DNA of 38,963 bases from a virus (Duplodnaviria > Caudoviricetes), in IMG/VR virus record IMGVR_UViG_3300020044_006241, positions 1 through 38,963 of that record; one strand, 5' to 3'. Position 1 is the first letter of the stretch; each line of letters starts with the position of its first letter. This document shows, piece by piece, positions 2,379 to 38,129 of this stretch. The translations under genes and the position numbers were made by a program. The notes beneath the pieces were generated by a model. It did no database searches and was not told the DNA's origin. It worked only from the letters and a program-made list of their open reading frames with translations.

Positions 2379-2394
2379 TGGCATACCCTTTGCG
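2379..2394 (+). promoter_or_regulatory. Sigma54 (-24/-12) promoter
   Basis: TGGCATACCCTTTGCG: GG-N10-GC, intergenic, oriented toward 2489. Confidence 0.75.
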
Positions 2395-2488
2395 ACACTC
2401 TCACCTGCACGACAGAGAAAGCTGGACGCTGATAGTGCAGATGATAAACCAAAACAACAAGTAATGGTCTAGCAGAACAAAACAACAA

Positions 2489-2986
2489 ATGAGCAACGAA
2501 ACGCAATCCCCTGAAGCCGCCGCAGAATCTGAAGTCTCCAACCCTTATGTTGGTTGCTTCGGTGAACGCAACGGCATCAAAATTCCTTGGGTGCGTCGCG
2601 CAGTTGTGCGCGGCGCCGCGAAGCGCACGCCGTATATCACCCTCGATTACTCCGGTTTCTCCGGTGCTGATCTCGTCAAGGCCTTCGGCGAAGAGAAGCT
2701 GAAGGAGTTGATCGAGGCGAAGATGAATGTCGCTGGCCGAGCGATCTGTCAGGACATCATCGGCGAAGACCGCGAGAAGGCTGGTTACACCGTCGACAAC
2801 ATGACGGACACGGAACTTCAAGAGTTCCAGAACTGGGCCGACGGCAAGGTCGAGGATCGCACTCCTCTGGCCGTTCTGCGCCAGCAGATGAACGAACTCG
2901 TCCTCAAGGGCGATCTCGAAGACCCCGAAGTGCTCATGCAGCTTGTCGGACTCAAGCGCGAGATCCTGCAACGCCAGCGCAAGTAA
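2489..2986 (+). CDS. Hypothetical protein, monocistronic, probably highly expressed
   Basis: 165-aa ORF between a sigma54 promoter and a terminator; A-rich leader; visibly C/G-ending codon bias. Confidence 0.85.
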   Translation: MSNETQSPEAAAESEVSNPYVGCFGERNGIKIPWVRRAVVRGAAKRTPYITLDYSGFSGADLVKAFGEEKLKELIEAKMNVAGRAICQDIIGEDREKAGYTVDNMTDTELQEFQNWADGKVEDRTPLAVLRQQMNELVLKGDLEDPEVLMQLVGLKREILQRQRK

Positions 2987-3024
2987 GTCAGACGTGCGTG
3001 ACAACACGCACAGTTTGCAATGCA

Positions 3025-3064
3025 AGCCCATCAGTGAGCGATCCTCACTGGTGGGTTTTTGTTT
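3025..3064 (+). terminator. Intrinsic terminator
   Basis: agcccatcagtgag-cgatc-ctcactggtgggtt stem followed by T run. Confidence 0.8.
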
Positions 3065-3072
3065 GCACATTG

Positions 3073-3088
3073 TGGCACGAATCCTGCT
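3073..3088 (+). promoter_or_regulatory. Sigma54 (-24/-12) promoter
   Basis: TGGCACGAATCCTGCT: GG-N10-GC, directly after terminator, before 3127. Confidence 0.8.
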
Positions 3089-3126
3089 TATGCTTGTGTC
3101 GTAGGAAATCGAATTAACTACCTCGA

Positions 3127-3744
3127 ATGTCAGCTACAGTTAATCCTCTAACATCACTCTTCGGACTTACGGTTAAGACTAGAAGTCCAGATAACGCATC
3201 ATCGAAACTTAAAGAAGCACGGAAACTAGGAATCAAAATTCTAACGGAAGAACAAGTGTTCAAGCCAATGAAAACTAAAACACCAGAGAGTGAAATCGAA
3301 TGGGCCGCACAAGCGAACTGCAACGATCAAGCGATGGGGCGAATCGGATTGTTCTCTTTGTTGCGATTGATTGCATCAGCCGATGGCGGTCATGGTTACA
3401 TCACGATACACAAGGGAGTATCGAGCACGGTCTTGTTCGCATTGAACGAGGCTGATCCGAAGATGGTCCATTGGTGTGTGACAGAACACACGGACTACAT
3501 CAAGGTGTGGCGGCGAAAGGAATGGAACGAAGCATACGAGAAGGTCGTTGCCGACGAAGTGAAGAAGAGTATAGCGATACTCAACGAACAGGAGTATCAA
3601 GAGGCGAAGGCGACAGTGATCAACTTCTTCCTCGAACTGTTCGATGGCAATCGCAAGATTGCTGAGGCGATGTTCGCACCGATGGCAAACAATCACGAGA
3701 AACTAGTCAAGAAAGCTAACGCTATACGCAACGTCATCAAATGA
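3127..3744 (+). CDS. Hypothetical protein
   Basis: 205-aa ORF, ATGA overlap with next gene. Confidence 0.8.
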   Translation: MSATVNPLTSLFGLTVKTRSPDNASSKLKEARKLGIKILTEEQVFKPMKTKTPESEIEWAAQANCNDQAMGRIGLFSLLRLIASADGGHGYITIHKGVSSTVLFALNEADPKMVHWCVTEHTDYIKVWRRKEWNEAYEKVVADEVKKSIAILNEQEYQEAKATVINFFLELFDGNRKIAEAMFAPMANNHEKLVKKANAIRNVIK

Positions 3745-4739
3745 GCGCACCACCAAACAAGGCTATCGCCCTACACAAGGGCCGCACATTCGCCACACAA
3801 TCTGAGGAAGCAAAGATTGCGTTCGCGAAGAAGTCGTATGAGACTACAGCACAAGTGCTGCGGTTCTCATTCACACTCGGCAAGGTAACGTCACTGTTCG
3901 CAATCTGTGACACGCTGAAGATTGCACCAGTCGGGCCTGATCGACACGTCTCGAAAGAGGAATTGACAGCGTTGGTTCTTCGAGGACGTGAAGAACTCCA
4001 CGCGAAACTGGCCGAGCCCAAATCCACAACAGTTGAGCCAGTCGTTGAGGCTCCGGTCGTTGAGGCTCCGGTCGTTGAGACGGTTGACGACAAAGGCGAC
4101 GAGACTATCCCAATGCCTGAACTCACGGACAACCCGCGTGTGCAAGCATTCGGATTCCAAGTTCGCAAGGGCCGCGAGTTGTTCAGGAACCTCACGGTCA
4201 AGGGACATCGCGCTAACTTGCTTCTCTCGCAGACTGGCAGCGGTAAGACTTACATGCTTGGCGCAGTGATGGCGGCCATGAAACGCACTGGATACTTCGA
4301 GGACTACGCGGGTATGTATCCGATGCTCTACGTGACGAAGGCTTCAATCGTCAATCAAACGCAGAAAGTTCTGACGGAATGCTTCGGACTCGATGACCTT
4401 GATGTGATGGTCACGAACGTTGAACAACTACGTGCGATGATGGGCCGCATCTTCCTCACGGAAGAAACGATTATCGTGCAAGGTCAAGAGCACATCGTGT
4501 TCAAGTGGCGAGTGCGTCCGATGCCACGCTTGATTGTGTGGGACGAGGCGCAGATACTCAAGAACATTGATTCGACGCAGTCGAGGATAGCCCAAGCGTT
4601 GAACGATGTGACTGAGTTGTCGCACGGTAAGGAGGCTAACAAACTTCGACAAGTCTTTGCGTCAGCGACACCGTTCATGCGTCTTGTTGAGACGAAGGTG
4701 TTTGCGGCAGCGACGAAGTCAGAGATGGAAGGGATGTGA
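3741..4739 (+). CDS. SF2 helicase, N-terminal ATPase (RecA1) half
   Basis: Motif I SQTGSGKT, motif II VWDEAQ, motif III ASATP; ends shortly after motif III. Confidence 0.85.
   Translation: MSAPPNKAIALHKGRTFATQSEEAKIAFAKKSYETTAQVLRFSFTLGKVTSLFAICDTLKIAPVGPDRHVSKEELTALVLRGREELHAKLAEPKSTTVEPVVEAPVVEAPVVETVDDKGDETIPMPELTDNPRVQAFGFQVRKGRELFRNLTVKGHRANLLLSQTGSGKTYMLGAVMAAMKRTGYFEDYAGMYPMLYVTKASIVNQTQKVLTECFGLDDLDVMVTNVEQLRAMMGRIFLTEETIIVQGQEHIVFKWRVRPMPRLIVWDEAQILKNIDSTQSRIAQALNDVTELSHGKEANKLRQVFASATPFMRLVETKVFAAATKSEMEGM
4032..4086 (+). repeat. 15-bp tandem repeat encoding a (VEAPV)n linker
   Basis: gtcgttgaggctccg repeated, with degenerate flanking copies. Confidence 0.75.
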
Positions 4740-4742
4740 TGT

Positions 4743-4994
4743 ATGCCAAAGATACCGATACATCTACAGAAGAAACGCGGCCCGAAGCCGAAGAAGAAAC
4801 AGTGCTTGTGCAGCAGGCCAATGTTCCGCATGAAAGGTAAGTATGCGGTTTGTGAGTGGTGTAGTAGTCTTGAGAAAGCGGGTGAACAGAAGCGTCACAC
4901 AGAAGGACTGCGGCGAAGGGCTGATGTTGGTTTGGCTGTGGTTGAACCGTATGGTTGGTATGATGGTGGAATGAATGGGAGGTATAACTTATGA
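4743..4994 (+). CDS. Small basic Zn-finger-like protein
   Basis: CLC...CEWC, Lys-rich N-terminus. Confidence 0.6.
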   Translation: MPKIPIHLQKKRGPKPKKKQCLCSRPMFRMKGKYAVCEWCSSLEKAGEQKRHTEGLRRRADVGLAVVEPYGWYDGGMNGRYNL

Positions 4995-5562: not shown

Positions 5563-5578
5563 AAGGAGTTGAGATTGT

Positions 5579-5938: not shown

Positions 5939-5942
5939 CACT

Positions 5943-6152
5943 ATGAACAAGTTCTACACATGCACTGCCTCAGACTCAGAACACTGTAACGATCGCAGCA
6001 AGCGCTTCGATACATTAGCTGAAGCAGAAGACGCCGCAATGAAACGCTTGACTATTGCACCCTCGTTACACGGCGTCGTTATCATGGAAGCCGTTAAAGA
6101 GATTACACGCAAGCCGATTGAGATACCATTCATCATCAAACAAATACACTAA
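5943..6152 (+). CDS. Hypothetical protein
   Basis: taacactATG context. Confidence 0.65.
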   Translation: MNKFYTCTASDSEHCNDRSKRFDTLAEAEDAAMKRLTIAPSLHGVVIMEAVKEITRKPIEIPFIIKQIH

Positions 6153-6737: not shown

Positions 6738-7952
6738 ATGAGCGCTAAACTAAACAACCAATCGTGGGCACCGTGGGCGGCAGCAATCGCCGCACCTGCA
6801 TCCATTCTCGACTACTCGCCGCCAGCAATGGAGCGTTTCATGAAAGCAATGAAGCCCTATGTTGTCGACGTGAAGGGAGTTCGACCGAAGTTTCCTGCAC
6901 GCAATCGCGTGAAGAAGATTCCATTCGACAACCCCGAACAACGCAAGCAATACGATCTCGCTTGGGAACGATACGAACGTGAGATGATCCTACTCAAGGG
7001 CGGCATGAAGGAACTCGGTCAGTTCCAACAGCTTGTCGCCATGATGAAGTTCTCACAGGCCGCCGAACTTATTCGAGCGGAGTTCTTTGCGCGTGACTTG
7101 GACCGCATCGTTCGTGAGGGGAAGGCCGGCGTCCTCGCGATCAAGTTCAAGGAGACAGCGGCAGCGACTATCAAACTTCTCGTGACGAAGTTCGGTTACT
7201 CACGCGAGGACATCAGTATCATCTGGGGTGGAATGGGCGGCATGTTCACGGCAGATGGTAAGGTTAAACTCCGTGAGAAGAAGGTGCCTGAGACTGCATG
7301 GGCTATGATGGGTCCAGAGGATCTCGACATGTTGAAGACGCTCAACATCCGTGTGCTTGTCATGAGCAAGGATAATCCTGAGAAGGTTGTGAAGGAGATT
7401 GAACTCTCGTCGGAGTTGGATGAGCGAGAGAAGCTGAACAAGGCGGGCATGAGCAGCATCGGTGCGGCTGACTTGAGTGAGCTTCGACTTGGCACGCAGA
7501 ACGCGAAGAGTCGTCAGACTGAGATCGACAAGTTCCAAACGGGCAAGTCTCGCATCTGTATCTTCACGTTCAAGGCGGGTGGTGTTGGTCTGTCATTGCA
7601 TCATCACGACAAGACTTGCATTCAGCGTGAGTCAATCATCGCTCCATGTTACAGTGCAATCGAGATGGTTCAAGGGCTTGGCCGTGCGCCGCGTCTCACG
7701 TCGTTGTCTGAGACTGTGCAGACAATGGTATTCTTCAAAGGCACCATCGAGGATCACATTGCCGACAAGGTGAGCGAGAAGCTCAAGTGTTTGCGTGAGG
7801 TTGTGAGACAGCGTGAGTCATGGGAGGATATCATTGTTGATCCTTCGGGACTTCCGATGAAGAAGTTTGACGAGGACGGTAACGATGTTGTCGAAGTCAT
7901 TGACGACGGCAGCGCTAACGATGAGGTTGACGATGATGACGAGGATAATTAA
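6738..7952 (+). CDS. SF2 helicase, C-terminal (RecA2/HelicC) half
   Basis: Motif V AGGVGLSL, motif VI QGLGRAPR; no Walker A/B; own taacacaATG start; acidic tail. Confidence 0.85.
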   Translation: MSAKLNNQSWAPWAAAIAAPASILDYSPPAMERFMKAMKPYVVDVKGVRPKFPARNRVKKIPFDNPEQRKQYDLAWERYEREMILLKGGMKELGQFQQLVAMMKFSQAAELIRAEFFARDLDRIVREGKAGVLAIKFKETAAATIKLLVTKFGYSREDISIIWGGMGGMFTADGKVKLREKKVPETAWAMMGPEDLDMLKTLNIRVLVMSKDNPEKVVKEIELSSELDEREKLNKAGMSSIGAADLSELRLGTQNAKSRQTEIDKFQTGKSRICIFTFKAGGVGLSLHHHDKTCIQRESIIAPCYSAIEMVQGLGRAPRLTSLSETVQTMVFFKGTIEDHIADKVSEKLKCLREVVRQRESWEDIIVDPSGLPMKKFDEDGNDVVEVIDDGSANDEVDDDDEDN

Positions 7953-8280
7953 CATTCGGCTGGCGAACGCGGCCCATATCGGATGGGAGAATGAATTCGG
8001 AATGGTTGTGCATAGCACAACGAAACCAGTTGCAACATATCTCGGTTCACCTGCACACGAACGCAGGCCGCCATCAACTCACGATCACTGGAGGTTCTTC
8101 GTGATCTTTACATACGGATACGGAACGGAATACAAGTTCTACGGCAAGCGAGCAACGGACTTGTGGAATCTTTGGAAGTCAGAACAATTCAACAAACAAT
8201 CCCATGGAAAACGAAACACCAAACGCAGTAAGCGCAGCACCAACCGCACGTCAACTCCACAACTCGTCCTGCTTGTCTAG
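7936..8280 (+). CDS. Hypothetical protein
   Basis: Fills the gap between helicase-C and activator; start uncertain (7933/7936); 3' end overlaps next gene. Confidence 0.45.
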   Translation: MTRIINIRLANAAHIGWENEFGMVVHSTTKPVATYLGSPAHERRPPSTHDHWRFFVIFTYGYGTEYKFYGKRATDLWNLWKSEQFNKQSHGKRNTKRSKRSTNRTSTPQLVLLV

Positions 8281-9187
8281 CACGCCACTTGTCGGTATCG
8301 CCGCACGCATAGCAGCAGCGCGAGCGTTAAGTGAGGGGGCGAAGCGTCGTCTCGACAACATCAACTTGATGAAGGCGGAGAACGTCATCTCGAATGATGA
8401 AGCTCGTAAGCTAACACGACAAGTTGAGAGTGCAGCGAAAGAGGAACGCTTGTCACAGCCTGCGACACCAGCACAACTTCAGCCGGGACAGATGGCGATG
8501 AAGATGTTGGACAGGTTCGTCACGTGTGACCCTGACCTGATCAAAGTGAAGGAGCGAGTGAAGACGCTGGCGACTGTTCACTATCCAGTGTTGATTCGTG
8601 GTGACTCTGGCACAGGCAAAGAGTTAATCGCACGTGCATTGCACGGCAATCGTGTCGGACCATTCGTAGCAATCAACTGCGCCGCCATCTCCGAGAACCT
8701 GATCGAGTCTGAGTTGTTCGGTCATGTTAAGGGTGCGTTCACTGGTGCATTCAATGACCGCGCTGGCTTGCTGATTAAAGCGCGAGGCGGCACAGCGTTC
8801 CTCGATGAGATCGGTGACTTGCCGTATGCACTACAGGCCAAGCTGTTGCGAGCATTACAGAATCGAGTAGTGCGTCGTGTCGGATCGAACGATGACGAAG
8901 AGATTGACTGTCGCATTGTTGCAGCTACACACAAAGGCATCGAGTCATCTCTCAACGACACGTTCCGGCTTGACCTCTACTACAGATTGAGCACGTTCAT
9001 CCTCGACCTCAAGAAGATGGGTGAGCGAACATACGAAGACTTCGAGTTGATCTCGAAACACTTCGGGGGTGATGACGAGGACACGCAGCGACTGTGGGTT
9101 AATCGTGGGCGAATGAAGGGTAACTTCCGTGACATCGAACAATACTTTATCCGCAAGAAGGTTCTTGGAATACTCTCCTACGAATAG
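8204..9187 (+). CDS. Sigma54-dependent enhancer-binding protein (bEBP, AAA+) lacking receiver and C-terminal HTH
   Basis: GDSGTGKE Walker A, INCAA, ESELFGHVKGAFTGA, FLDEIGDL Walker B, QAKLLRALQ, RIVAAT, FRLDLYYRL R-finger, GNFRDI sensor II; protein ends ~15 aa later. Confidence 0.95.
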   Translation: MENETPNAVSAAPTARQLHNSSCLSSTPLVGIAARIAAARALSEGAKRRLDNINLMKAENVISNDEARKLTRQVESAAKEERLSQPATPAQLQPGQMAMKMLDRFVTCDPDLIKVKERVKTLATVHYPVLIRGDSGTGKELIARALHGNRVGPFVAINCAAISENLIESELFGHVKGAFTGAFNDRAGLLIKARGGTAFLDEIGDLPYALQAKLLRALQNRVVRRVGSNDDEEIDCRIVAATHKGIESSLNDTFRLDLYYRLSTFILDLKKMGERTYEDFELISKHFGGDDEDTQRLWVNRGRMKGNFRDIEQYFIRKKVLGILSYE

Positions 9188-9214: not shown

Positions 9215-9235
9215 TATACTATACTCAGCAACACT

Positions 9236-9871
9236 ATGTCTATACTATTAGAAACTCCCGAAGCATTTATGCAGGGATCAGAACCACCTATTAAGCGTGG
9301 TCAAGTTCGCAAGGTGCGAGCAGGAGCACGCTATGGTGACAGGCCGCCAGCGTATTACAACGAGGGCTATGCGAAAGCATTGTTGCCGACGCTGATCGAG
9401 ATGATTAAATCGCGGCAAGACAAAGAGTTCATGCGCGAACGTATCTCGACTGACACACTCTATCAACGAGTGCATCAAGCGTTTGCGTATTGCATTGATC
9501 ATCTTGATGAGGCCGGCCTACTCGATACTCTGCGGCGTGAAGTTCAGATTCGGCGCACGCCAAAGGGAATCGTGATGTGCTTCATGGAGAACTCTTCACG
9601 ATACGACCGGCAAGCGACAGCGCATTCAGTCTCGGCTCGGCCCGATGCGTTCAAGGTTCGCAACGCAATCAGTGTGAACTGGCACGAGGCGGTCCATGAG
9701 TTTGTCGAGAGTGACGCGAGAGAGCTTGTGCTCAAGGATGGGTTCGCACTCACGCCGCAAGAGCAGTCGGATATTCGGGCGCTGATTAGTCTTGTGCCTG
9801 AGGGTGTTGAGCCAATCAGTATTGTGATGCTCAACGGTTTCAACATTCACCTTCGTCGTGGCACGCAATGA
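9236..9871 (+). CDS. Hypothetical protein
   Basis: caacactATG start, 211 aa. Confidence 0.8.
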   Translation: MSILLETPEAFMQGSEPPIKRGQVRKVRAGARYGDRPPAYYNEGYAKALLPTLIEMIKSRQDKEFMRERISTDTLYQRVHQAFAYCIDHLDEAGLLDTLRREVQIRRTPKGIVMCFMENSSRYDRQATAHSVSARPDAFKVRNAISVNWHEAVHEFVESDARELVLKDGFALTPQEQSDIRALISLVPEGVEPISIVMLNGFNIHLRRGTQ

Positions 9872-10140
9872 CCATCGAAGAACTTCTCGAATTACCGCCC
9901 GAAGGACTGGAAGCTCTGACTGATGAGGCTCTCGTAGCACACCTCAGTAAATACTTCCAGTTCTCTCGGCCGCAACAAGACCTCCGTGTTCTCGTTCCGA
10001 ACTCACCAGTAGGCACACGCAAACCTTCTATCTCACGTCCTGCTCAGAGCGCAATGGCAAAGGCAGTCGTCGATAAGTTTATGTCTGACCCTGACATGCC
10101 TCTTGAGAAACTTCTTGCAATGCGAAAGCTAGTATCATGA
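9868..10140 (+). CDS. Hypothetical protein
   Basis: ATGA overlaps on both sides. Confidence 0.7.
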   Translation: MTIEELLELPPEGLEALTDEALVAHLSKYFQFSRPQQDLRVLVPNSPVGTRKPSISRPAQSAMAKAVVDKFMSDPDMPLEKLLAMRKLVS

Positions 10141-11078
10141 AACGACACATCCGATTAAACTCTTCAGCGATTCGACACTCGTCCTGTATCCGCAAAGTCC
10201 AGTATGTTCTCGACGGCTATCACGAAGTAGCAACCTCGAACGACATCGTGTGGGGGAATTGCTTCCACGACTTTGCCGCAGAATTCAAACGCAACGGCGG
10301 CGTGTTCAATGACGCCTGCAAGAAAGGCTGGGCGTTTCGTGATACAGTCGAACGTATCTACACGAAGTATCGCAAGGATCATCTCAATGACTTCGCGTTC
10401 TTCAAGCAGGTCTGTTTCTTCTGGTCACTCGAACACTCGTCGTGGAACACAGTGTCAGTTGGAGGCAAGGCTTGTGTTGAACTCGGTTGGTTGTTTCCGT
10501 TCTACGCTGGTGAGCATGTTGACATCTCGCTTTGCGGAACGATTGATGACATCTGCCTGCACAAGGAGAATGCGGGAGCGGTTGCGATTCGTGACTACAA
10601 GACAACCTCTGCGTCTGACCCTGCTGATTACTTCAACAAGTATCGGTTGAGTTCGCAGTTGATGACGTATTACTACGGTCTGACACAAGTTGCGAAGCGC
10701 GGCCTCGCGGCTAATGCGACAAGCGAGCTAGCTAAACTCTGGCTCAACGCGTCGAGTCGTCATGTGTTCATCGAAGGAATCTTCCTTGCGACTGACCCGA
10801 CGAAGACAAAGTTCATGACGAGTGATGCGTTTGAGATTAGTGATGAGCGTATTGCGGAATACGAAATGCTTGTCATGGGCCTGTGCAAACGTCTCGATGT
10901 TCCTCTTGAGCACAAGCATCCACGTGAGGGATTGATCACACGCGGGTGTGAGTCGGAAGGTTACGGTCGCAAGTGTTCCTTCTTTGAAGTGTGCGCTGCT
11001 GCGACGGATGACGAAGCACAGATGAACTTGACAGGAATGTTTGCAAAGGAAGAAGACTACAACCCACTACTAGCATGA
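10137..11078 (+). CDS. PD-(D/E)XK nuclease, Cas4/RecB-like exonuclease
   Basis: GNCFHD, GTIDDI, IRDYKT, QLMTY; N-terminal C plus C-terminal C..C..C cluster. Confidence 0.85.
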   Translation: MKRHIRLNSSAIRHSSCIRKVQYVLDGYHEVATSNDIVWGNCFHDFAAEFKRNGGVFNDACKKGWAFRDTVERIYTKYRKDHLNDFAFFKQVCFFWSLEHSSWNTVSVGGKACVELGWLFPFYAGEHVDISLCGTIDDICLHKENAGAVAIRDYKTTSASDPADYFNKYRLSSQLMTYYYGLTQVAKRGLAANATSELAKLWLNASSRHVFIEGIFLATDPTKTKFMTSDAFEISDERIAEYEMLVMGLCKRLDVPLEHKHPREGLITRGCESEGYGRKCSFFEVCAAATDDEAQMNLTGMFAKEEDYNPLLA

Positions 11079-11398
11079 ACGCAGATAAACTACAACGACT
11101 GAACGACGCAATCCGTGAAGTGATCACGGACATCGAAGGGCCGCAACCCTTATTCAAAAACGAGACGCGAACTTGGATGGTTGAAGTTCTCGCAGACAGT
11201 GTGATTCGGCGGGCGGCTAAGTTCGCTCGCGGTCAAGCTGAACATGGTGGTGACTTCCTCACGAACAAGATGAACGTCATCGGTATGATGGAGGAAGAGA
11301 TTGACGACCACTTCTTTTATTTCGAGCGGTTCAAGGCTGACGTAGCGAAGAGCATTGCTCGAATGAACAGAACCAACCCAACCACAACCAACAAGTGA
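11075..11398 (+). CDS. Putative all-alpha nucleotide pyrophosphohydrolase-like protein
   Basis: KFARGQAEHGG and EEEIDD..FY resemble MazG/dNTP-diphosphohydrolase-like phage proteins. Confidence 0.45.
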   Translation: MNADKLQRLNDAIREVITDIEGPQPLFKNETRTWMVEVLADSVIRRAAKFARGQAEHGGDFLTNKMNVIGMMEEEIDDHFFYFERFKADVAKSIARMNRTNPTTTNK

Positions 11399-12102
11399 TC
11401 ACACTACCAACAACTATCACCGGACCAACGCACACTAACCCTAAGCTAACACTACTGTATGGGCCGCCGAAAGTCGGCAAGACTACCGCTCTGAGCGAAC
11501 TCGAAAACTGCCTCATCATCGACTGCGAAGACGGCTCTGATTACATCAGTGCGCTCAAGGTAAAAGCGAACAACATCGAAGAGCTTCGTGAAGTGTGCAA
11601 AGCGATTCGTGGTGCAGGTTCACCATACAAGTTCGTAGCGGTTGACACGATCACTCGCGTTGAAGACTGGTGTGAGCGTTACGCAACGTCACTCTACAAG
11701 CAGAGTGTCTTGGGCAAGAGCTTCACTGGGGGGAGTGTTCTTGAGTTACCGAATGGTGCAGGATACGGACACCTTCGTGAAGCGTTCTCGTCTGTGCTAA
11801 TGATGCTGCACAACATCGCGCCGCATGTGATTCTCGTTGGACATCTGCGCGAGAAGTTCATCGGCGGCAAGGACGCGAAGGTTGACAGTATGGTTTCGTC
11901 GAAGGACCTTGAGTTGACCGGCAAGATCAAGCAGATCGCCTGCTCCCGTTCGGATGCGATTGGTTATGTGTATCGTAACTTCGAGGATGGCTTCAAGTTG
12001 TGGATTTCGTTCGAGAGCACAGAGCAGATTAACTGCGGTGCGCGGTGTGGTCATCTGAAAGGTAAGCGTATGCCGCTTAACTGGAAGGAGATTTACAAAT
12101 AA
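11395..12102 (+). CDS. AAA_24 / Sak4-like ssDNA-annealing ATPase
   Basis: LLYGPPKVGKTT, IIDCEDG, VAVDTI, GAGYG, ILVGH; flanked by nuclease and SSB. Confidence 0.85.
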   Translation: MITLPTTITGPTHTNPKLTLLYGPPKVGKTTALSELENCLIIDCEDGSDYISALKVKANNIEELREVCKAIRGAGSPYKFVAVDTITRVEDWCERYATSLYKQSVLGKSFTGGSVLELPNGAGYGHLREAFSSVLMMLHNIAPHVILVGHLREKFIGGKDAKVDSMVSSKDLELTGKIKQIACSRSDAIGYVYRNFEDGFKLWISFESTEQINCGARCGHLKGKRMPLNWKEIYK

Positions 12103-12169
12103 CAATTTCCGCCCTAAGGCGGCAAGGCTGGTATCCTCACTACCAAAAACAAAAAACAAAACAAAACAA

Positions 12170-12739
12170 ATGAGCAACAGCAATAACATCCTGACCCCAG
12201 CACCTGTCGACGCGTCACAACCTGAACAGCTGAACAGCAGTGTTAAACTGCCGCGTGGTAACTATGTGGTTCGGTGCAAGAAGGCCGAGTTCCAGTTCTC
12301 GCGTAAGGCTGGCAACCCCATGTTCGTTCTGACGTGGGAGTTGTGCAAGCCTGAGACGGTGCGAGTTGAAGGCCGTGTGTATTCGATCGCCGGCGTTGAG
12401 TTGCGCAAGCAATACTTGACGTTGACGCCCGAAGCGGCCAAGCGCACGTTCGAGCTTCAGTCACTGCTCGGACTCGAACAGAAGGTGGACCTCGACAATC
12501 CGCTCGAAGCGGCGAACAAGTTCGTTGGTCAGGTGGCCAATGCGTTCTGCGGTAGCGATGAGTATGTGAAGCGCGCAGACCTGACGGACGAAGAGATTGC
12601 CGATGGCAAGACTCCCGATCAAGCGGCTCCGATCACCTATGAGGACGGCTCACCGGTGAAGGGTTACACTCGTGAACTCCTGCAAGTCTTGCAGAAGTCG
12701 AGCGTGACGTTGCCTCCGTTGACTGGCGAGTCGATGTAA
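12170..12739 (+). CDS. DUF669-like single-stranded DNA-binding protein
   Basis: LPRGNY.V....AE...SRKAGNPMF.L.WE; follows Sak4-like gene; long (AAAAC)n leader. Confidence 0.7.
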   Translation: MSNSNNILTPAPVDASQPEQLNSSVKLPRGNYVVRCKKAEFQFSRKAGNPMFVLTWELCKPETVRVEGRVYSIAGVELRKQYLTLTPEAAKRTFELQSLLGLEQKVDLDNPLEAANKFVGQVANAFCGSDEYVKRADLTDEEIADGKTPDQAAPITYEDGSPVKGYTRELLQVLQKSSVTLPPLTGESM

Positions 12740-12754
12740 TCAGTGAGTTCTTGT

Positions 12755-12788
12755 CTGGCTGTTGTGGTATGCACGCCATAGCAGCCAG
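12755..12788 (+). other. Intergenic RNA hairpin (processing or attenuation site?)
   Basis: ctggctgttgtggt / gccatagcagccag, 14 bp with G-U pairs on + strand; no U tail. Confidence 0.6.
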
Positions 12789-12802
12789 CAAAGAAACCAT
12801 TC

Positions 12803-14353
12803 TTGACCATGACAAAGTTTCGTCACAAACCTAAACTGCCCTACTGCGGCCTGACGATTGTGTTGGCGAATCCCTCACGGTTTGACACACGTGAGTTGTT
12901 GACTGGTAATGCTGGCACATGGTTCCTTGACACACTTCGTCAGGCCGCCAACGGTAAGCTAATTCGATTTCACTGTGACATCCGCACATCTAACACGCGT
13001 GACGAAGGCTTGCTTGAAGGGACACGTGTTGTGTTCTGCCTCGGTGAGACAGCGCAGCATGAATGGTTCGCACCACAGACTGAACTGAAAGCACAACGAG
13101 GCTCGCCGCACGTCGCACACGACGACATAATCTATCTGTCATCGTTTACCCCACAAGACTCACACGACTTCCAAGCATATGAGCAACGACTCAACGCTAA
13201 CTATCGAGGTGCTCATGACGATGATGCGGAAGCAGACGATAGCGAGGTTAAGGGTCACAAGGGTGCGACAAAGCGAACGAACTACAAGTTCTGGCTCGGA
13301 ATGGATACATACAAATGTGTCCGACTACTTAATCAAGGATTGGCCAACACTGGTCGATGTGCAGTATCAGTCTATCCTGATGCAGAGCGAGTTGTCAGCG
13401 AGCTACAAAGCACGAAGAACTCTACGCTCTATCTGGATATCGAAACTCTGTTCGACCGAACGCTCACGTGCATTGGATTTGCTTTTGAGGGGCGACCTGT
13501 GTATGTCTTCCCGCTACGTCGTTATCACGGAGGACTGGCATATGATGTTTTGAAAACGTGCAAGATGATGGCCGCGCTTGGGACGGCAATGCGTGACAAC
13601 CTGTGCGTGACACACAATGGACATGCGTTCGACTGGTTAGTTCTCGCTCACCATTATCGCATCCCATTTGGCCGCCGTCTATACGATACAATGATCGCGC
13701 AGAATCGTTGTTGGCCTGAGGCGGAGAAGTCACTCGGGCATTGTCTCTCGCTCTGGACAGATGAAGCGTATCACAAGGACGACGGAGTATTCGATCCGCA
13801 CAACACTCAACAGGAGGAAGCTCTGTGGAACTACAACGCAAAGGATGTTCATGCGTTGCGCTTACTCAAGGCCGCATTCGACAAGGCTGGGGTTGATGAT
13901 CCCGGTCTAGGTGCAAGCATTGAGCAAGGCCAGCAGATGATTTATCCGTATATGGTGGCGGCCCTTCGCGGTATTCGAGCGGACGCGGCTAAGATCACAG
14001 AGATCGTGACAGAGAATGACCGACTGCTCACTCAGTATCTGAGGATCGCTAAGGTTCTGATTGGCCCCGATAACTACGCTATACTCAAGGGCAAGAGCGA
14101 AGCGGGGTTCCTGTCCTCGAACAAGCAGGCGGCCAAATACTTCTACGAGATTCAGAAGTATAAGTGTCCTCACAAGACTGACACTGGTGAAGATGCGGTT
14201 GATGTGAAGGCCATGCTGAAGCTAGCGATTGCGCTCAAGAAGAAGGGTATTGAGAACCCTGTGATTCCGTTGCGGTTGAAGTTTGCGGAAGTGAAGAAGG
14301 AAACGTCGATGCTGTCGAATCTTAACCTCTGGCCAGAGAAGGCTTATCTATGA
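12803..14353 (+). CDS. polA: DNA polymerase A, N-terminal part: degenerate uracil-DNA-glycosylase-like domain + 3'-5' exonuclease
   Basis: UDG-fold-like IVLANPS..LLTGNAG, FCLGETA, QRG, SFTP; ExoI YLDIET, ExoII HNGHAFD, ExoIII YNAKD; RGI and thumb start; ATG 12809 is the probable start. Confidence 0.8.
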   Translation: MTMTKFRHKPKLPYCGLTIVLANPSRFDTRELLTGNAGTWFLDTLRQAANGKLIRFHCDIRTSNTRDEGLLEGTRVVFCLGETAQHEWFAPQTELKAQRGSPHVAHDDIIYLSSFTPQDSHDFQAYEQRLNANYRGAHDDDAEADDSEVKGHKGATKRTNYKFWLGMDTYKCVRLLNQGLANTGRCAVSVYPDAERVVSELQSTKNSTLYLDIETLFDRTLTCIGFAFEGRPVYVFPLRRYHGGLAYDVLKTCKMMAALGTAMRDNLCVTHNGHAFDWLVLAHHYRIPFGRRLYDTMIAQNRCWPEAEKSLGHCLSLWTDEAYHKDDGVFDPHNTQQEEALWNYNAKDVHALRLLKAAFDKAGVDDPGLGASIEQGQQMIYPYMVAALRGIRADAAKITEIVTENDRLLTQYLRIAKVLIGPDNYAILKGKSEAGFLSSNKQAAKYFYEIQKYKCPHKTDTGEDAVDVKAMLKLAIALKKKGIENPVIPLRLKFAEVKKETSMLSNLNLWPEKAYL

Positions 14354-14772
14354 CCCCATTCACCATCCCAGTAAACCTCACTCGAAAGTTCGTCGACTCG
14401 AACCCGAGCACAATGTTCCTAATTGGCGGCCCACTTAGCAACATCTTCAGCGAAGGTGAGCCTGCTCCATACGTCGGATGCTCCAACATCTTTCACGTTC
14501 CGATCAAGATCAAATGCTGTATGGATTCGTCGGCCTTCTTCACTGACTCGTTCCTCGACATCTTCGAGTGGGAACTAGAGAAGGCCGCCAACGGATTGCT
14601 CACGCACAAGTTCACTCACGGACTTAACCAAGTGGTTCCTGATCCACGATTAGCCCGAACGAACTGGGCCGGGCCAATGCATGTGACTGCTCCGAAATGC
14701 CGCGCTGCTCTTGACAAGTGGCTTGAGCGATATTGCTCACCGTATGTCATTGACTACACCTTTAAGATATGA
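14350..14772 (+). CDS. Hypothetical protein between the two polymerase halves
   Basis: ATGA overlaps on both sides; weak resemblance to a phage family with R..V..NP...F.FG / PN...IP.K / FFTD / APK pattern. Confidence 0.7.
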   Translation: MTPFTIPVNLTRKFVDSNPSTMFLIGGPLSNIFSEGEPAPYVGCSNIFHVPIKIKCCMDSSAFFTDSFLDIFEWELEKAANGLLTHKFTHGLNQVVPDPRLARTNWAGPMHVTAPKCRAALDKWLERYCSPYVIDYTFKI

Positions 14773-15791
14773 GCCGCCTCACCTGTTGTTACCGTCTCGC
14801 CAAGACCAACACCTTTCGTCTTGGAAGTGGTAAGCTATTCCCACAATCCAAAACGAACAAGTCGGCTTGCGGTCCTGAGTTTGGCGGTAATATGCAGAAC
14901 TGGGAGAAGTCGTTGCGAACCCTAGCTCTCGCGGATGAAGGCTGCTCGTTCTGTCAGGTTGACCAAGCGGGCGCTGAGGCATTGATCGTTGCGTATCTCT
15001 GTCCTCCCGGTCGCTATCGTGATCTGTTCTTGCACAGCATCAAGCCTCACGTCTACATCGGTGTGTTCTTTCCGTCACATTGGGAGCGTGAGTTTCCAAT
15101 GGTGCGAGACTTCGTGAGCATTCCGATTGCTGAACTCAAGAACCATCCACAATGGCCAGCATTCGCCAAGCTCGTTGCGAAGTCAGACTCGAACCCGTCA
15201 GCGACTCGATACTATTACTTCTACAAGCAGACCTGCCATTCTGGGAATTACGGCATCATGGAGAACACCTTCATCGAGAACCTTCTCTCGAAGAGCGGCG
15301 GCAAGGTAAATCTATCGGCCGCCGAAGGAGCGCAATTCTTAGGAACGTATCGTGACGTGGCATTCCCTGAGCTTCACTCGTTCCACAACTACGTCAACCG
15401 TCAGATCGAAACTAAGCATGAGCTTCGTAACTTGTTCGGCTACCCTCGCAAGTTTCGCTCACTCAAGTTCGACTCGAAGGAAGCATACGCTTTCATCCCA
15501 CAGTCAACCGTCGGATGCATCACGAACAAAGCAGTCGTGATGATGCAGGAACATATCTTTACGCACAAGCTCAACTGGATAATCCTGAACAACTGCCACG
15601 ACTCTTACCTTGTGCAAGCGCCGACGAGTGAGATTATGGAGTGCGCGAAGTTGATGAAGCAGTTCATCGAAGTTCCGCTCGTTGGCATTCGCGGCGAGAA
15701 GTTTAACATGCGAAGTGAAGCGTCGGTTGGTCGTAACTGGGGACCATACAGCGACAAGAACCCTGACGGACTGAAGGAGATAAAGATTTGA
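14769..15791 (+). CDS. polA: DNA polymerase A, polymerase domain
   Basis: TNTFRLGS, NMQN, motif A QVDQAGAE, motif B KQTCHSGNYG, PQSTVG, motif C NCHDSY, VGRNWG. Confidence 0.9.
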   Translation: MSRLTCCYRLAKTNTFRLGSGKLFPQSKTNKSACGPEFGGNMQNWEKSLRTLALADEGCSFCQVDQAGAEALIVAYLCPPGRYRDLFLHSIKPHVYIGVFFPSHWEREFPMVRDFVSIPIAELKNHPQWPAFAKLVAKSDSNPSATRYYYFYKQTCHSGNYGIMENTFIENLLSKSGGKVNLSAAEGAQFLGTYRDVAFPELHSFHNYVNRQIETKHELRNLFGYPRKFRSLKFDSKEAYAFIPQSTVGCITNKAVVMMQEHIFTHKLNWIILNNCHDSYLVQAPTSEIMECAKLMKQFIEVPLVGIRGEKFNMRSEASVGRNWGPYSDKNPDGLKEIKI

Positions 15792-25096: not shown

Positions 25097-26191
25097 TTAC
25101 TGCATTACCGCGATTCGTGAGTCCATCCAGCGGCGTATCAAAGCTTTGATTTTTGGCTTATCCTTGATTTTCGAGGCAAACCATTCGCCACGGGTCATGT
25201 AAAGATTGTAGAACCAACGAGGAGCCTTGGACATCAACCACACGCGGAACAATCTCCAGCGAGGATTGCAGTCACCGTAGACTTCACGAGCAACCCAACA
25301 ATCGCGTCTAGTGACTGCCCCAATGCCATTCATGACCGTTCCAAATGTGGCGCCAAACCGATCAAGGCTGTCACGACGCTGAGAGTTGATATTCTGACTG
25401 AGACGTTGGTTCTCTCCAGCCTGACTGAGAAGATTCGTTGTCAAGCCCATCGTATTCTGACCCAAACCAGAGGTCTGTGACCCAGCGAACTTGTTCTCGC
25501 CAGTATTACCAGAGAACGCCGAACGACCAGTCGCAACTTGGAACGGATCGAAGCCAGACTTGGTTCCCTGCATCGCTTGCGAGGTTGTCGCCAAGGCTTG
25601 CGCGAGTGAGTTCCTGCGATTCTGGCCAGCTTGACCGAAAGTCATCGCGTTCCTTATGGCAGCTGTTGGTGAACCAATGTCATTCACGCCGCCAGCGACA
25701 TTCGTTCTGTTCAGGCCGCGCGCAATCTCTTCGCTCTCCGAACCCGACAAGCCTGCGCCGCCGAACGACTCCAATAATGAGGTTCCTTGGCGGCCCAACG
25801 CCTCACGCATCTTGTAGAACTCAGGGTCAGCTTTACGCTGAAGAGCGAGAGCAGCGTCAACGAGGCCAGTCTCATTCGCTTTCGCGAGCGTAGCAGCATC
25901 AGAACCGACAGCGGCTAGCTGATTGTCGCGGGAGATTTGATTGCCAATCTGGTTGAGGATCGGACCAAACTGGCGATACGTGTCGAGTGCTAGTTGATTC
26001 TCCTGAGGGGTAATTGCACGAGAGGCGTTGATGCGGGCTTGTTCGAGAGGAAGAATATTCTCACCGGTGACTTGCGTCAAGCCGGGAAGGTTCTTAATCA
26101 ACGCCGCCATCATCGCGTCGGTGGATTCGCCACCCGATTGAGGAGCAGGATCACCTCCGCGAAGGACTCGAAACGTGTTAAATAGAGACAT
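25097..26191 (-). CDS. Putative DNA-transfer/ejection protein with CWVAREVYG C-terminal domain
   Basis: Gly/Ala/Gln/Asn-rich body; CWVAREVYG..RW..FR.WL...AP.WF...Y...GE. Confidence 0.65.
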   Translation of the reverse strand: MSLFNTFRVLRGGDPAPQSGGESTDAMMAALIKNLPGLTQVTGENILPLEQARINASRAITPQENQLALDTYRQFGPILNQIGNQISRDNQLAAVGSDAATLAKANETGLVDAALALQRKADPEFYKMREALGRQGTSLLESFGGAGLSGSESEEIARGLNRTNVAGGVNDIGSPTAAIRNAMTFGQAGQNRRNSLAQALATTSQAMQGTKSGFDPFQVATGRSAFSGNTGENKFAGSQTSGLGQNTMGLTTNLLSQAGENQRLSQNINSQRRDSLDRFGATFGTVMNGIGAVTRRDCWVAREVYGDCNPRWRLFRVWLMSKAPRWFYNLYMTRGEWFASKIKDKPKIKALIRRWMDSRIAVMQ

Positions 26192-26579
26192 AATTAGAAG
26201 CTGTTAGTTGACTAAGGTGAGAAAGTCGTTGAATTCGCTTGTAATCAACAAGCGACTTACCCTCAACTTTCTTTCGACGAAATCCTCGAAGCGTCCAGCC
26301 TCTAAAACTACCTTCAAAGAGAAGCAGAAGGTGTGCTAAGTCACGCGGCGAAGCACACACGATCTGCGTTACATCGAATACTCGCTCTGTGTGACGCGGC
26401 ATTCCGAAGCAGAACCCAGTGAGTTTGCCGTTGGTGACAACACAACCGAATCCGCCACGTTCGATTGCGTGGACAATGCTTAGTGCGATAGAACCATCGC
26501 TCCAGTTGCGGAGAACTTTCTGTTCTCCGCGAATGGCGCGTTGTGCGTGAACGAATTCGATTACGTCTTGGACGGTCAT
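26178..26579 (-). CDS. GNAT-fold-like virion assembly protein (T7 gp13 position)
   Basis: Lies between nozzle and ejection genes; VVTNGKLTGFCFG beta pattern. Confidence 0.5.
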   Translation of the reverse strand: MTVQDVIEFVHAQRAIRGEQKVLRNWSDGSIALSIVHAIERGGFGCVVTNGKLTGFCFGMPRHTERVFDVTQIVCASPRDLAHLLLLFEGSFRGWTLRGFRRKKVEGKSLVDYKRIQRLSHLSQLTASNYVSI

Positions 26580-34287: not shown

Positions 34288-34704
34288 TCACTTGAGCGCG
34301 TCCAATTCCTTTTGCTTCGCGGCAAGCTCCGCCGCAAGTGTCGCCCGCTTGCGGTCGAGGTCTGGCAACTCCGCTTCCGTGATGACGCTGAAAACAATCG
34401 CCCGCGATGCTTCCGGCAACTCGGCGAGTTTGGCTTTGGCCTTGGCGATCAACGCGGCCCGCGTCGCAAGGGCGGCGTCCAACTTCGACTGCACGGCGGC
34501 GAGCGCGGCGGCTTGTTCAGCCTCGCGCTTCTCAAGTGCCAGTTGAATCGCGCTGGCTAGTTCGGGCCGGTTTCGGATGGTGTCGGCTGGCTTCCCGACC
34601 GGTTGGCCGTTCACGGTGACAGACGTTGCAGAGACGACCACGACGACATCGCTGGCGTGGAGCGTGGAGGCGCAGAGCGCGACGGCAAGGAGGATGGTTT
34701 TCAT
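34288..34704 (-). CDS. Signal-peptide-bearing coiled-coil protein
   Basis: MKTILLAVALCASTLHA|SD; Ala/Leu heptads. Confidence 0.7.
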   Translation of the reverse strand: MKTILLAVALCASTLHASDVVVVVSATSVTVNGQPVGKPADTIRNRPELASAIQLALEKREAEQAAALAAVQSKLDAALATRAALIAKAKAKLAELPEASRAIVFSVITEAELPDLDRKRATLAAELAAKQKELDALK

Positions 34705-34709
34705 GGTTT

Positions 34710-35564: not shown

Positions 35565-35568
35565 AGAA

Positions 35569-36003
35569 TTAGACTCCTCCGGAAACATTAGCCATGACAA
35601 GAGACAGCTTAATGTCCGCTGCACCGAGAGTAAGCGTGGTTTCTGTGGTAGAAACGACATACACAAACTTCGTGATAAATCCCATTCCTCTGGGACCGGG
35701 AACATCCAACCAAAAATTACCGTTAGCAGGAAGAGCGAGGATCATAACTGCGGTGGCAACTCCATTAGCAGGAACATCGGACAAATCGAAAAGATGAAGC
35801 CATTGTGCCGCTCCTTTGTTATAGCCAAACAAAGACTTGAGATATATCACAGCTTCTGTGGAAGGAATTGAAATAGTTCCAGAAGCACTCCAAAGCGTAG
35901 AGGTGACTGACTGCGGAATCAGAACTGGTGTCGGCTGATTCGCCACAAACACGCTACGAATGTCCTGCGGATTGGAAAACTGTGGGAGTAGAAGCTCTGA
36001 CAT
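35569..36003 (-). CDS. Putative head decoration / structural protein
   Basis: Beta-rich; WLHLFD...VPANG pattern; two genes after capsid. Confidence 0.55.
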   Translation of the reverse strand: MSELLLPQFSNPQDIRSVFVANQPTPVLIPQSVTSTLWSASGTISIPSTEAVIYLKSLFGYNKGAAQWLHLFDLSDVPANGVATAVMILALPANGNFWLDVPGPRGMGFITKFVYVVSTTETTLTLGAADIKLSLVMANVSGGV

Positions 36004-36101
36004 AAAGGGGAAGCGAGGTTTTGTTGACTTGAGGTTAACCTCTTCCTCAAGGTTTTGTGATCAATGCTGGACGCTTTTCACACAAAACAAATTGTTGCGG
36101 T

Positions 36102-36596
36102 TTAGTTCAAGCGACGATAGTTAACCGTCAACGTTGCATTCGTGCTAGCCGTAACAGCAAGCCCGCGCACCGTATTCAAGTTAACCGTAAACGGTCCACT
36201 CACACTAGACGCCCCAGCAGAATAAACTGCGAGGGACGGCCAAGTATTCGTATTCGCAGCTACCGAAGCGGTAGTCGTGAACACACCGACGAACGTATTC
36301 GTCTGAAGATTACCAGCAGAGTTGGTAATCGTGGACGTCATGTTCGTGGTATACGACGTAGTCGTAGTATACGTGGCGTTCGTGTAAGTCGAACTGGCCG
36401 CCGAGTTATCGAACAACGTCACCGTGGTGGCACCCGCTGAAGTTCCAGCAACCGTGATGCTGGAAATCTGCAACGGAAACGCCAGACACAGAGATGTGCC
36501 CGCCGAAAGGTTGGTGCTGAATGTGGACTGAGCATTAACGCTCATGGACACACAAAGCAACCCAACCGCGATCAGAGACTTGAGGAGTTTCTTCAT
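36102..36596 (-). CDS. Thr-rich beta protein with signal peptide (decoration-like)
   Basis: MKKLLKSLIAVGLLCVSMSVNA|QST; directly after capsid gene. Confidence 0.7.
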   Translation of the reverse strand: MKKLLKSLIAVGLLCVSMSVNAQSTFSTNLSAGTSLCLAFPLQISSITVAGTSAGATTVTLFDNSAASSTYTNATYTTTTSYTTNMTSTITNSAGNLQTNTFVGVFTTTASVAANTNTWPSLAVYSAGASSVSGPFTVNLNTVRGLAVTASTNATLTVNYRRLN

Positions 36597-36659
36597 ATTT
36601 GATTTCTGTTTAATAGTTGTCAGTGGTTAATGAGGCTTAGTTACTTCGCCTCACATTGA

Positions 36660-37961
36660 TTACGCAGCGACCGGATTACGAGCGCCACGGAAACGACGGA
36701 ACAGAATCGGGAGAATACCACGCTTCTGAGTTCCAACGATGCCAGTCGTCAGATGCGAGATAAGTTGGAGATACTCCTTATACTTATTCGTGTCCCACAC
36801 AGTGTTGCCACCTTCGTCAGTGCAAGGAACATTCACGTCATCAGTCATGATAACGCGGCCATTCCAAGGCATGTCACCGAAGTCCTTCGGGGGAGGTCCA
36901 ACACGAAGCATCTCGTATGGAGCGCCACCAGACACGAGGAACGCGACTTCATACTCAGCGTTCACGTAGTCAGGATTCGGGATCGTCTCACCGTAGTTAT
37001 TCGCATTCGGATTCAACTCAACAGTCTCAGGAGCAGGCCACGTGATGTAGGCAGCAGCGCCGGGATTCTGAGTAGAATCGAGCTTGATACGCAACGGCAT
37101 GTCTTCGAGTTTGCACATGACGCGACCAAACAGATTGCCCTTGAAACCCTTCGTGAGGATGTTCAGATCAATCTGCTTATACTCAAGCAGGAACGGATCA
37201 TACATGAACTGGTTGTAAGCATCGCTGCCAATAACCAGTGCATACATCGAGTTGAGCGGCGAAGAGTCACCGTTAGGCAACTCACTACCACTGAACGGCC
37301 GCATACGCTGATCGTCGAGGTGAGAACAAGCGAGGTTAATCGCGTTCAAACTCAACGGACCGACGTTAGCGATACCATTCAACTTCGCGCCGAGGTAAGT
37401 ATTAGTCTTACCAGCGGTTCCAGCGGAGTTACCTTCAGCACCCCACGGAGCATCCGTCAACACGCCATCACCGGGAGCGCCGGGAATCATGAGGTAACGA
37501 GATTGGTGGAAAACATAACTGCGGGCCATCACGTCATTGAAACGTGTAACCTGATCGTTAATGTTCTCAAGCGTGAACTCGATGGAGTTCTTCAAGAAAT
37601 CCTGAAAGGACGGCAAGAAGTTGAACATCGGGGATTCAAACTTGTGGTGCTTCGGAGCGAACGAAGTGGAACGCTCGCGTGTGATCACGAGGTCTTTCTT
37701 CGCCGAGTCGGTGAGTGCATTGGGGAACGCATGAGCGCGAAGAACAGGAGAGAACTGTTTCTGGATCACCTTACCGGTGGAACCCATGTTCTGATCCCAT
37801 TTTCGTTCGCCGAGAATCTTGGACCAAATGGACCAAGTTTTCAAGTGTTCAGCTTGCTTCGCTTGAAAGAAGTAGGGGAGCTTGTTGTAGAAGTCCCGAT
37901 CCAATTCATTCCAAGACGTGCAAGCCTGATTATCAATAGAGGGCAGTGTAGCTGCTGACAT
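36660..37961 (-). CDS. Major capsid protein
   Basis: 433 aa after scaffold-like gene; own promoter; composition and position typical of an HK97-fold MCP. Confidence 0.75.
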   Translation of the reverse strand: MSAATLPSIDNQACTSWNELDRDFYNKLPYFFQAKQAEHLKTWSIWSKILGERKWDQNMGSTGKVIQKQFSPVLRAHAFPNALTDSAKKDLVITRERSTSFAPKHHKFESPMFNFLPSFQDFLKNSIEFTLENINDQVTRFNDVMARSYVFHQSRYLMIPGAPGDGVLTDAPWGAEGNSAGTAGKTNTYLGAKLNGIANVGPLSLNAINLACSHLDDQRMRPFSGSELPNGDSSPLNSMYALVIGSDAYNQFMYDPFLLEYKQIDLNILTKGFKGNLFGRVMCKLEDMPLRIKLDSTQNPGAAAYITWPAPETVELNPNANNYGETIPNPDYVNAEYEVAFLVSGGAPYEMLRVGPPPKDFGDMPWNGRVIMTDDVNVPCTDEGGNTVWDTNKYKEYLQLISHLTTGIVGTQKRGILPILFRRFRGARNPVAA

Positions 37962-38113
37962 AGTAGGCTGAGTCGAGTTTCGCTGCTTTTATTCAGGCAA
38001 CAGCGGATTCCTGTCGTTGTGAGATTCTGTCACAACAGTCAGGTTGCTGCCCTGCAACGCATTCGAGGCTGATTGGTGCTGCCCTACACCTACTATGAAG
38101 CTATCTATGATAG

Positions 38114-38129
38114 AGCATGGAGCGTGCCA
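38114..38129 (-). promoter_or_regulatory. Sigma54 (-24/-12) late promoter upstream of capsid gene
   Basis: Reverse complement TGGCACGCTCCATGCT: GG-N10-GC, intergenic. Confidence 0.8.

Follow-up and report, generated by a model that had tools for sequence, protein, structure and literature searches.

Can a phage bring its genes under the sigma-54 RNA polymerase of its host by encoding the activator for which that polymerase waits? The question is raised by a 38,963-nt stretch of DNA (IMG/VR record IMGVR_UViG_3300020044_006241; Caudoviricetes), referred to here as the window. The window is a single record and covers part of the genome of a tailed phage. It carries an open reading frame (ORF) for a bacterial enhancer-binding protein (bEBP) at 8204-9187 (+) and four sites of the sigma-54 -24/-12 promoter type. 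The sigma-54 holoenzyme is described as closed until a bEBP hydrolyses ATP (PMC7175178). A sequence-only reading of the window proposed that the phage times its middle, replication and capsid genes by supplying the activator for this holoenzyme. The present analysis indicates that a minimal AAA+ activator with a GAFTGA loop likely opens host sigma-54 RNA polymerase at conserved -24/-12 sites and in this way runs most of the phage programme.

Predicted sigma-54 sites in the window

Exactly four matches to TGGCAY-N6-TGC are present in the window, against a chance mean of 0.80, and one of 100 shuffles reached four. P1 (2379-2393, +; predicted +1 at 2405) stands before ORF 2489-2986. P2 (3073-3087, +; predicted +1 at 3099) heads the operon that leads from a helicase to the activator. 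P3 (9199-9213, +; predicted +1 at 9225) lies 12 nt past the activator stop and heads the replication block, and P4 (38115-38129, -; predicted +1 at 38103) precedes the putative major capsid gene. All have the fixed GG-N10-GC spacing of the TGGCAC-N5-TTGC consensus. The sequence-only reading had listed these four sites as intergenic and pointing into genes, and all were recovered where it had placed them; each faces the next gene, whereas fully intergenic 15-mers make up 5.1% of the window (P about 7e-6). The site count alone is modest, and position is the strong part of the observation.

Since the pattern of that reading was post hoc, an independent matrix was built from 34 capsid-upstream sites of relatives, with the window excluded. 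The matrix scan, which had been proposed as a check, placed the four strict sites at ranks 1, 2, 3 and 5 in the window. P2 scored best (21.2 bits), followed by P4 (16.1), P3 (14.5), a further site at 26338 (-) (12.4) and P1 (12.2), after which the scores dropped to 7.7. At least four sites at 12.4 bits or more were obtained in 2 of 200 Markov simulations. A loose consensus scan of the window with two mismatches allowed gave no enrichment (29 matches, 23 expected). A chance origin of the sites was rejected on the basis of the independent matrix, their position and the cross-genome controls described below.

A minimal activator

The product of ORF 8204-9187 has 327 aa and matches Pfam Sigma54_activat (PF00158) at 6e-58. 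All motifs of a bEBP (clade 6 AAA+) are present, namely Walker A (G133-E140), the switch asparagine N158, Walker B (F199-E202), the arginine fingers R255 and R261, sensor II R309 and an exact GAFTGA loop L1 at residues 177-182. The predicted model (pLDDT 91.7) has the bEBP AAA+ fold with its lid. Its best fold matches are the AAA+ domains of FleQ, NtrC4, FlrC and PspF (E 1e-23 to 1e-18), and superposition on the FleQ domain gave a root-mean-square deviation of 1.6 A over 233 columns. The protein stops 18 residues past sensor II and has no C-terminal helix-turn-helix (HTH) domain. Canonical NtrC-type domains were found in none of 55 aligned family members, neither HTH_8 (0/55) nor receiver, GAF or PAS domains (0/55). 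In the predicted model, the place of the sensor is taken by a helical hairpin (29-84) made of two helices, 29-58 and 64-84. The gene had been called a complete GAFTGA bEBP gene. The ORF is indeed complete and its motifs are intact, but the protein has no C-terminal HTH and no known sensor domain; it is therefore a minimal, not a complete, activator.

The strict catalytic-motif patterns were matched by 59-62 of 65 relatives of the protein. Comparison with the near-identical L004 indicates purifying selection (dN 0.010, dS 0.104, the nonsynonymous and synonymous divergence). In a FastTree analysis, which was quick, had no root test and did not include the chromosomal activator FleT, 66 short proteins and P0094, which lacks the HTH too, formed one clade (support 0.93) against 94 full-length bEBPs; this points to the short form having arisen once. 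Of the best 120 activator matches, about a hundred are short, and many of these are on contigs of 40-57 kb. The protein also matches PHROG 7998, a family of unknown function. Bacterial contamination was rejected as the source of the activator, as the gene lies amid phage genes in every family genome. A 304-aa GAFTGA protein of the gut phage MT121960 (L032:22349-23263) was set aside as unrelated: its Walker A is broken (Asp for Gly), and the phage has no strict sites.

Conservation of the gene and the sites

The activator is carried by 18 of 18 relatives of 40-56 kb, which have the same core and gene order as the window. It is likewise present in all 30 genomes picked by capsid or terminase. 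These records of at least 40 kb came from capsid and terminase searches (80 loci each) outside the activator match lists; because the query alignments came from activator-bearing genomes, 30/30 marks a core gene of the family and not of a wider group. No family member without the activator was found.

The sites follow the same distribution. In 36 genomes, the strict pattern had 267 matches, as against 18 for reversed-pattern controls. The matrix gave 170 sites against 15 controls in 24 genomes, a scan in which the capsid sites overlap the training set, and 101 of the 170 are intergenic where about 11% of the DNA is. After 79 capsid loci were dereplicated to 35, a sense-strand site was found within 450 nt 5' of the putative capsid gene in 34 of them (antisense 2, coding controls 4). 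For the 65 dereplicated short activators with enough flank, from which the near-identical L004 was excluded, a site lies within 100 nt 3' of the stop in 36 cases (0 antisense) and within 700 nt in 52. The corresponding figures for full-length bEBPs are 3/72 and 22/72. P1, P2 and the terminator between them stand at orthologous places in the relatives G001 and G002 while the flanks diverge, and the terminator there is a different hairpin and T-run. In relatives, the terminase block is also preceded by sites, in many cases two in divergent orientation. Twelve terminase-only loci (about 175 kb) with no activator nearby served as an outgroup; they had 5 sites against 3 controls, which is background density.

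Relatives keeping the gene without the promoters had been named as the finding that would speak against the proposal. Instead, gene and sites are conserved together family-wide at orthologous positions, with the exception of one subclade that has few sites and a variant -14 base. Because of this joint conservation, and because the activator-less terminase relatives are at background site density, the proposed interpretation is supported.

Terminators and RNA coverage

Two sites had been reported to lie directly after intrinsic terminators. Both terminators were recovered, each as the top hit of its scan: T1 (3024-3064, +; stem 3024-3058) just 5' of P2, and T2 (38141-38179, -; stem 38179-38149) after the putative scaffold gene and just 5' of P4. 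They insulate these two sites.

The RNA evidence consists of the longest listed contigs of one study. In the metatranscriptome run X18, the deepest contig (2410-3036, depth 51.5) extends from 5 nt past the predicted P1 start into T1, and the bin 1801-2400 is empty. Another contig (35693-38083, depth 24.3) begins 20 nt past the predicted P4 start, next to an upstream contig of depth 4.3; the DNA run X1 is continuous over 35725-38963, across the P4 region. A shallow contig (9257-9918, depth 4.7) begins 32 nt past the predicted P3 start. The beginnings of the two deepest sigma-54-adjacent contigs near the predicted P1 and P4 starts are a hint only. Runs X19 and X20 hold a small share of the window and carry little weight.

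Proposed transcription programme

No match to an RNA polymerase or sigma factor was found among 44 window proteins and 70 further proteins of two near-complete relatives, in agreement with what had been said of the window. A site of sigma-70 type at 806-835 (+), with 11 of 12 consensus positions, is the sole strong one in the window; it abuts the ATG of the early ORF 836-1048 and is a candidate start-up promoter. From it, host sigma-70 polymerase would transcribe the first early genes, while the host sigma-54 holoenzyme would be parked on P1-P4. The first activator would be made by read-through past T1 or via a host bEBP. Acting from solution, it would then fire P2 (its own operon), P1, P3 (replication) and P4 (capsid); the terminase and tail promoters of relatives would be fired as well. 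Positive feedback via P2 is plausible from the gene arrangement: no terminator was found between P2 and the activator in the window scan, and in G001 the activator is translationally coupled to the upstream genes.

The AAA+-only fragment DctD250 is described as a constitutive, promiscuous and enhancer-independent activator (PMC3844500). Because the phage protein has neither an HTH nor a sensor, it too would be enhancer-independent and unable, alone, to order middle before late genes. Lacking a DNA-binding domain, it would give an all-or-none switch, with a sigma-70 phase followed by a sigma-54 phase. Differences in promoter strength, terminators, RNA stability or copy number would provide the finer order. 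Firing of host sigma-54 promoters would be a side effect. The idea that the phage supplies the activator for host holoenzyme is supported by the family-wide conservation of gene and sites, but the timing it was said to provide is better described as a gate, since a non-specific activator cannot order middle and late genes.

A broader reading is favoured with less assurance. It holds that an aquatic and sediment phage family runs nearly its whole life cycle on host sigma-54 polymerase, by means of a self-amplifying, enhancer-free AAA+ master switch. The family would then represent a distinct class of transcription programme and hold more domain-minimal bEBPs than any other natural set, and its protein would activate the host sigma-54 regulon wholesale.

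Several observations count against the proposed programme. Start-up is its weak link: strong early sigma-70 sites are present in some relatives (G026, G016 and G008), but none was seen in G001 and G002, and the first early-arm site is itself of sigma-54 type in several relatives. Start-up is for these reasons unexplained by the programme. Within 700 nt downstream, 13 of the 65 short activators have no site. Only 21 of the 65 have the exact GAFTGA loop; 27 have GSFTGA, 10 have other variants and 7 were unmatched by the pattern. The relatives G043, G049 and G063 have 0 strict sites, and a variant pattern gave only 3-4 sites against 1-2 controls in them, with no such site directly 3' of the activator. 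In all three, GAFTGA is kept, and the scaffold gene is followed by a GG-N10-GC site with A at -14.

The RNA data add further difficulties. A deep X18 contig over the gene for a protein like single-stranded DNA-binding protein (SSB) (12120-12742, depth 29.1) is not preceded by a sigma-54 site. In X18, the coverage of P2 is at low depth only. Contigs of X17 (2921-3998) and X20 (2987-3189) cross T1 and P2, as DNA or read-through would. All these contigs come from one study and hold no information on starts or strand. Lastly, ATPase activity, sigma-54 contact and rpoN dependence are predictions from the sequence.

Sites with A at -14 are seen in G043, G049, G063, G042 and G046, and also among the P1 orthologues of G001 and G002. 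They perhaps track the sigma-54 of another host or mark weaker promoters.

Alternative explanations

A variant that is compatible with the proposed programme is that the protein is gated by its N-terminal helical hairpin or by a phage or host partner, which would make it a conditional go/wait switch and not a simple timer. The helical extension is kept by all members. FleT, which works with a partner, is described as the lone natural bEBP without both flanking domains and as an exception among bEBPs. Positive feedback and an insulating terminator also favour bistability. Against this, conservation of the N-terminal part is poor, in sequence as well as in length (full-length members have 241-355 aa), and neither an integrase nor a repressor was found in library scans of the window and two near-complete relatives. 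Gating is a possible but doubtful addition.

It is unlikely that the promoters, though real, owe their firing mostly to host bEBPs, as is presumed for the Pseudomonas phage YuA, with the phage protein chiefly reprogramming the host sigma-54 regulon. YuA has sigma-54 promoters and no bEBP match, an HTH-less activator would hit host promoters too, as DctD250 does, and genomes with a first early site of sigma-54 type need some host input at start-up. Host bEBPs normally need enhancers, however, and in a crude test no shared upstream enhancer 9-mer stood above shuffles in 14 relatives, the window being borderline. Moreover, the DNA 5' of P2-P4 is coding or terminator. The gene is core (30/30) and physically tied to a promoter (36/65), unlike a patchy auxiliary gene.

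It is very improbable that the protein works as a decoy for host sigma-54 activators, or as a dominant inhibitor of them, with the sites being silent binding sites that act as roadblocks or sigma-54 sinks. Many bacterial sigma-54 binding sites are described as not being promoters (PMC3844500), but the catalytic motifs are intact in nearly all members (59-62/65), the sites strictly face genes and follow terminators where the genes 3' need a promoter, and deep RNA contigs begin just past P1 and P4. There is equally little to recommend a reading of the motif by another factor, either sigma-70 with a TyrR- or HupR-like regulator or a phage polymerase or sigma factor that has gone unrecognised: most phage proteins here are unannotated and some bEBP homologues are described as acting with sigma-70, but those homologues lose GAFTGA and keep the HTH while the phage protein does the reverse, the sites have the textbook sigma-54 consensus and fixed spacing, and the window and two near-complete relatives yielded no polymerase or sigma match.

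Relation to known systems

The observed pairing of activator gene and sites is real, family-wide and coherent, and the preferred reading, a phage activator for host sigma-54 polymerase, combines known parts in a new arrangement. The sequence-only reading knew of no such phage strategy. This stands for the programme of activator plus promoters: a phage-encoded bEBP with its own promoters was not found in full-text searches of literature that lacks most subscription papers, and supplements could list members as 'sigma-54 interaction domain protein'. It does not stand for phage sigma-54 promoters, which are already known from YuA (Ceyssens 2008). Three such promoters of YuA reportedly direct the expression of virion genes and were tested in an rpoN mutant. 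YuA is like the family studied here in having sigma-54-type promoters and no RNA polymerase of its own. It is unlike it in having no detectable bEBP, whereas here the activator and several sites are found family-wide; no Pseudomonas phage was among the 65 records that the activator matched under GenBank 'phage', which are mostly host fragments below 60% identity. YuA is described as relying on sigma-70 as well as sigma-54, and a single sigma-54-like transcription start site was recovered by ONT-cappable-seq (PMC10914365).

Natural bEBPs without a DNA-binding domain are described in bacteria, namely FleT, FlgR and CtcC. These are chromosomal, and FlgR and CtcC keep a receiver domain. FleT of Rhodobacter sphaeroides is named as the only bEBP without both flanking domains (PMC7175178, PMC3162934). 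The phage activators form their own clade among the compared sequences, FleT not being in the tree. The engineered AAA+-only activators DctD250 and PspF(1-275) have the same architecture as the phage protein (PMC3844500). They are described as laboratory truncations, whereas the phage protein would be their natural counterpart, with the extra helical hairpin.

Among phage proteins, Htm/Gp204 of Mosigvirus AV110 is described as a bEBP-like AAA+ protein without an HTH and is proposed to act on sigma-54 polymerase (bioRxiv 10.64898/2026.10.06.757011). Unlike the activator described here, it has no GAFTGA loop and a changed Walker B, its effects concern host genes, and phage sigma-54 promoters are not mentioned in the available part of the preprint. 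With T4 MotA/AsiA, host RNA polymerase is turned by a phage protein towards middle or late promoters of the phage, as it is with phage sigma factors, Mu Mor/C and P2 Ogr. These act on sigma-70 or replace sigma, and none is known to open a pre-bound sigma-54 closed complex by ATP.

If the programme is true, it would be a new route of phage takeover, the ATP-gated opening of polymerase already on phage promoters. It would provide a tight off-state and a fast on-state without a phage polymerase, and would stand as a separate class next to a phage-encoded polymerase, a phage-encoded sigma, sigma-70 appropriation and antitermination. Hosts would have to carry rpoN, which predicts a narrower host range and rpoN as a resistance locus. 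The family would offer dozens of natural activators with neither sensor nor HTH, as against the one (FleT) listed in the reviews, as far as available. Such activators could help to explain how bEBPs work when no enhancer is present, and could serve synthetic biology as compact switches.

Phage family and host

The window lacks the terminase, the portal and the divergence region that are present in relatives; the 18 relatives additionally hold the terminase (PHROG 2), a putative portal and the part in which the two arms run apart. Genomes of the family span 40-65 kb. At least half of the sampled window words were found in each of 16 public runs, which cover freshwater, river, estuary, sludge and sea. 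The searches brought up no cultured member, given that the GenBank 'phage' matches of the activator are mostly host fragments and the putative capsid has no match among GenBank phage records. The terminase-only relatives are mostly prophages of Verrucomicrobiota (27-33% identity), and rpoN is present in 5/5 of those genomes. A Verrucomicrobia metagenome-assembled genome is given as the source of one close activator, but Proteobacteria for its cluster-mate; closer terminase matches lie on small contigs in mixed bins. A search with ORF 34288-34704 added no name. Verrucomicrobiota as host is a lead only.

Other features of the window

The plus-strand arm holds small early genes, a split helicase, the activator, an exonuclease, a Sak4-like ATPase, a split family A polymerase and a primase. 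It converges with the minus-strand arm of virion genes. Near the start, ORF 1149-1556 is similar to pyrimidine dimer glycosylase. A 165-aa ORF with no assigned function (2489-2986, +) lies between P1 and T1, and the P1 leader holds a 9-nt motif (2422-2430) that G001 and G002 share with the window without change, amid flanks that have diverged. In the operon 3' of P2 (3127-7952, +), the halves of a superfamily 2 helicase (3741-4739 and 6738-7952) are 2 kb apart and are accompanied by small ORFs before the activator. Many relatives encode the helicase in one piece, of about 700-780 aa.

The replication block (9236-17341, +) comprises conserved ORFs of 211 and 90 aa, the exonuclease, the Sak4-like ATPase, an SSB-like DUF669 protein, the split polymerase and a primase/helicase. 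The first two, unannotated and right 3' of P3 (9236-9871 and 9868-10140, +), are each present in 17/19 genomes. ORF 9236-9871 is predicted to fold into two small alpha/beta domains with a weak winged-helix/R3H likeness. It was considered as a DNA-binding partner and set aside, its fold matches being weak (best Z 5.7-6.1, winged-helix/R3H-like and IF3-like). The SSB-like gene, with deep RNA and no promoter motif, is flanked by hairpins at 12109-12125 and about 12755-12790 (+), possibly for RNA processing or stabilisation. The polymerase split (12803-14353 and 14769-15791) is found in most of the family.

On the minus strand, a 2171-aa polyvalent virion protein with an ART-PolyVal domain (17319-23834) is conserved in its C-terminal part only. 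It was rejected as a virion RNA polymerase: a catalytic motif was found in 0/18 members, and its atlas neighbours are polyvalent proteins. The 26338 (-) site (26323-26338), a candidate fifth promoter with A for the first G of GG, lies inside an ORF about 130 nt before the gene 25097-26191. G001 and G002 have this variant in the matching position, and canonical sites are found 34-382 nt 5' of the orthologous gene in G016, G017, G019 and G035 (4/24 other entries). This site may be weak or a coding coincidence. The putative major capsid protein (36660-37961, -) is named from the order terminase-portal-scaffold-capsid and from conservation; capsid, portal and scaffold had no library match, and their names come from gene order. 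A long structured leader (37962-38103, -; z -3.1) precedes the capsid gene, with 130-280 nt in relatives, and is possibly a translational control element.

In G001, an Acb2/Tad1-type anti-defence hairpin protein is encoded at L190:14687-14932. A tRNA-like element at 670-794 (+) of the window has an acceptor stem, a D-arm-like start and a perfect T arm, and a variable middle of 35-75 nt replaces the anticodon arm. It scores 25.7 bits with the Rfam tRNA model, under the cut-off, and is missed by ARAGORN. Similar elements are found in G001 (two in tandem), G010, G026, G028, G031 and others; those at L190:10776-10909, L190:10653-10765, L206:7109-7221, L222:18640-18734 and L225:4038-4157 are all on the minus strand. 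The element is possibly a tRNA mimic or decoy.

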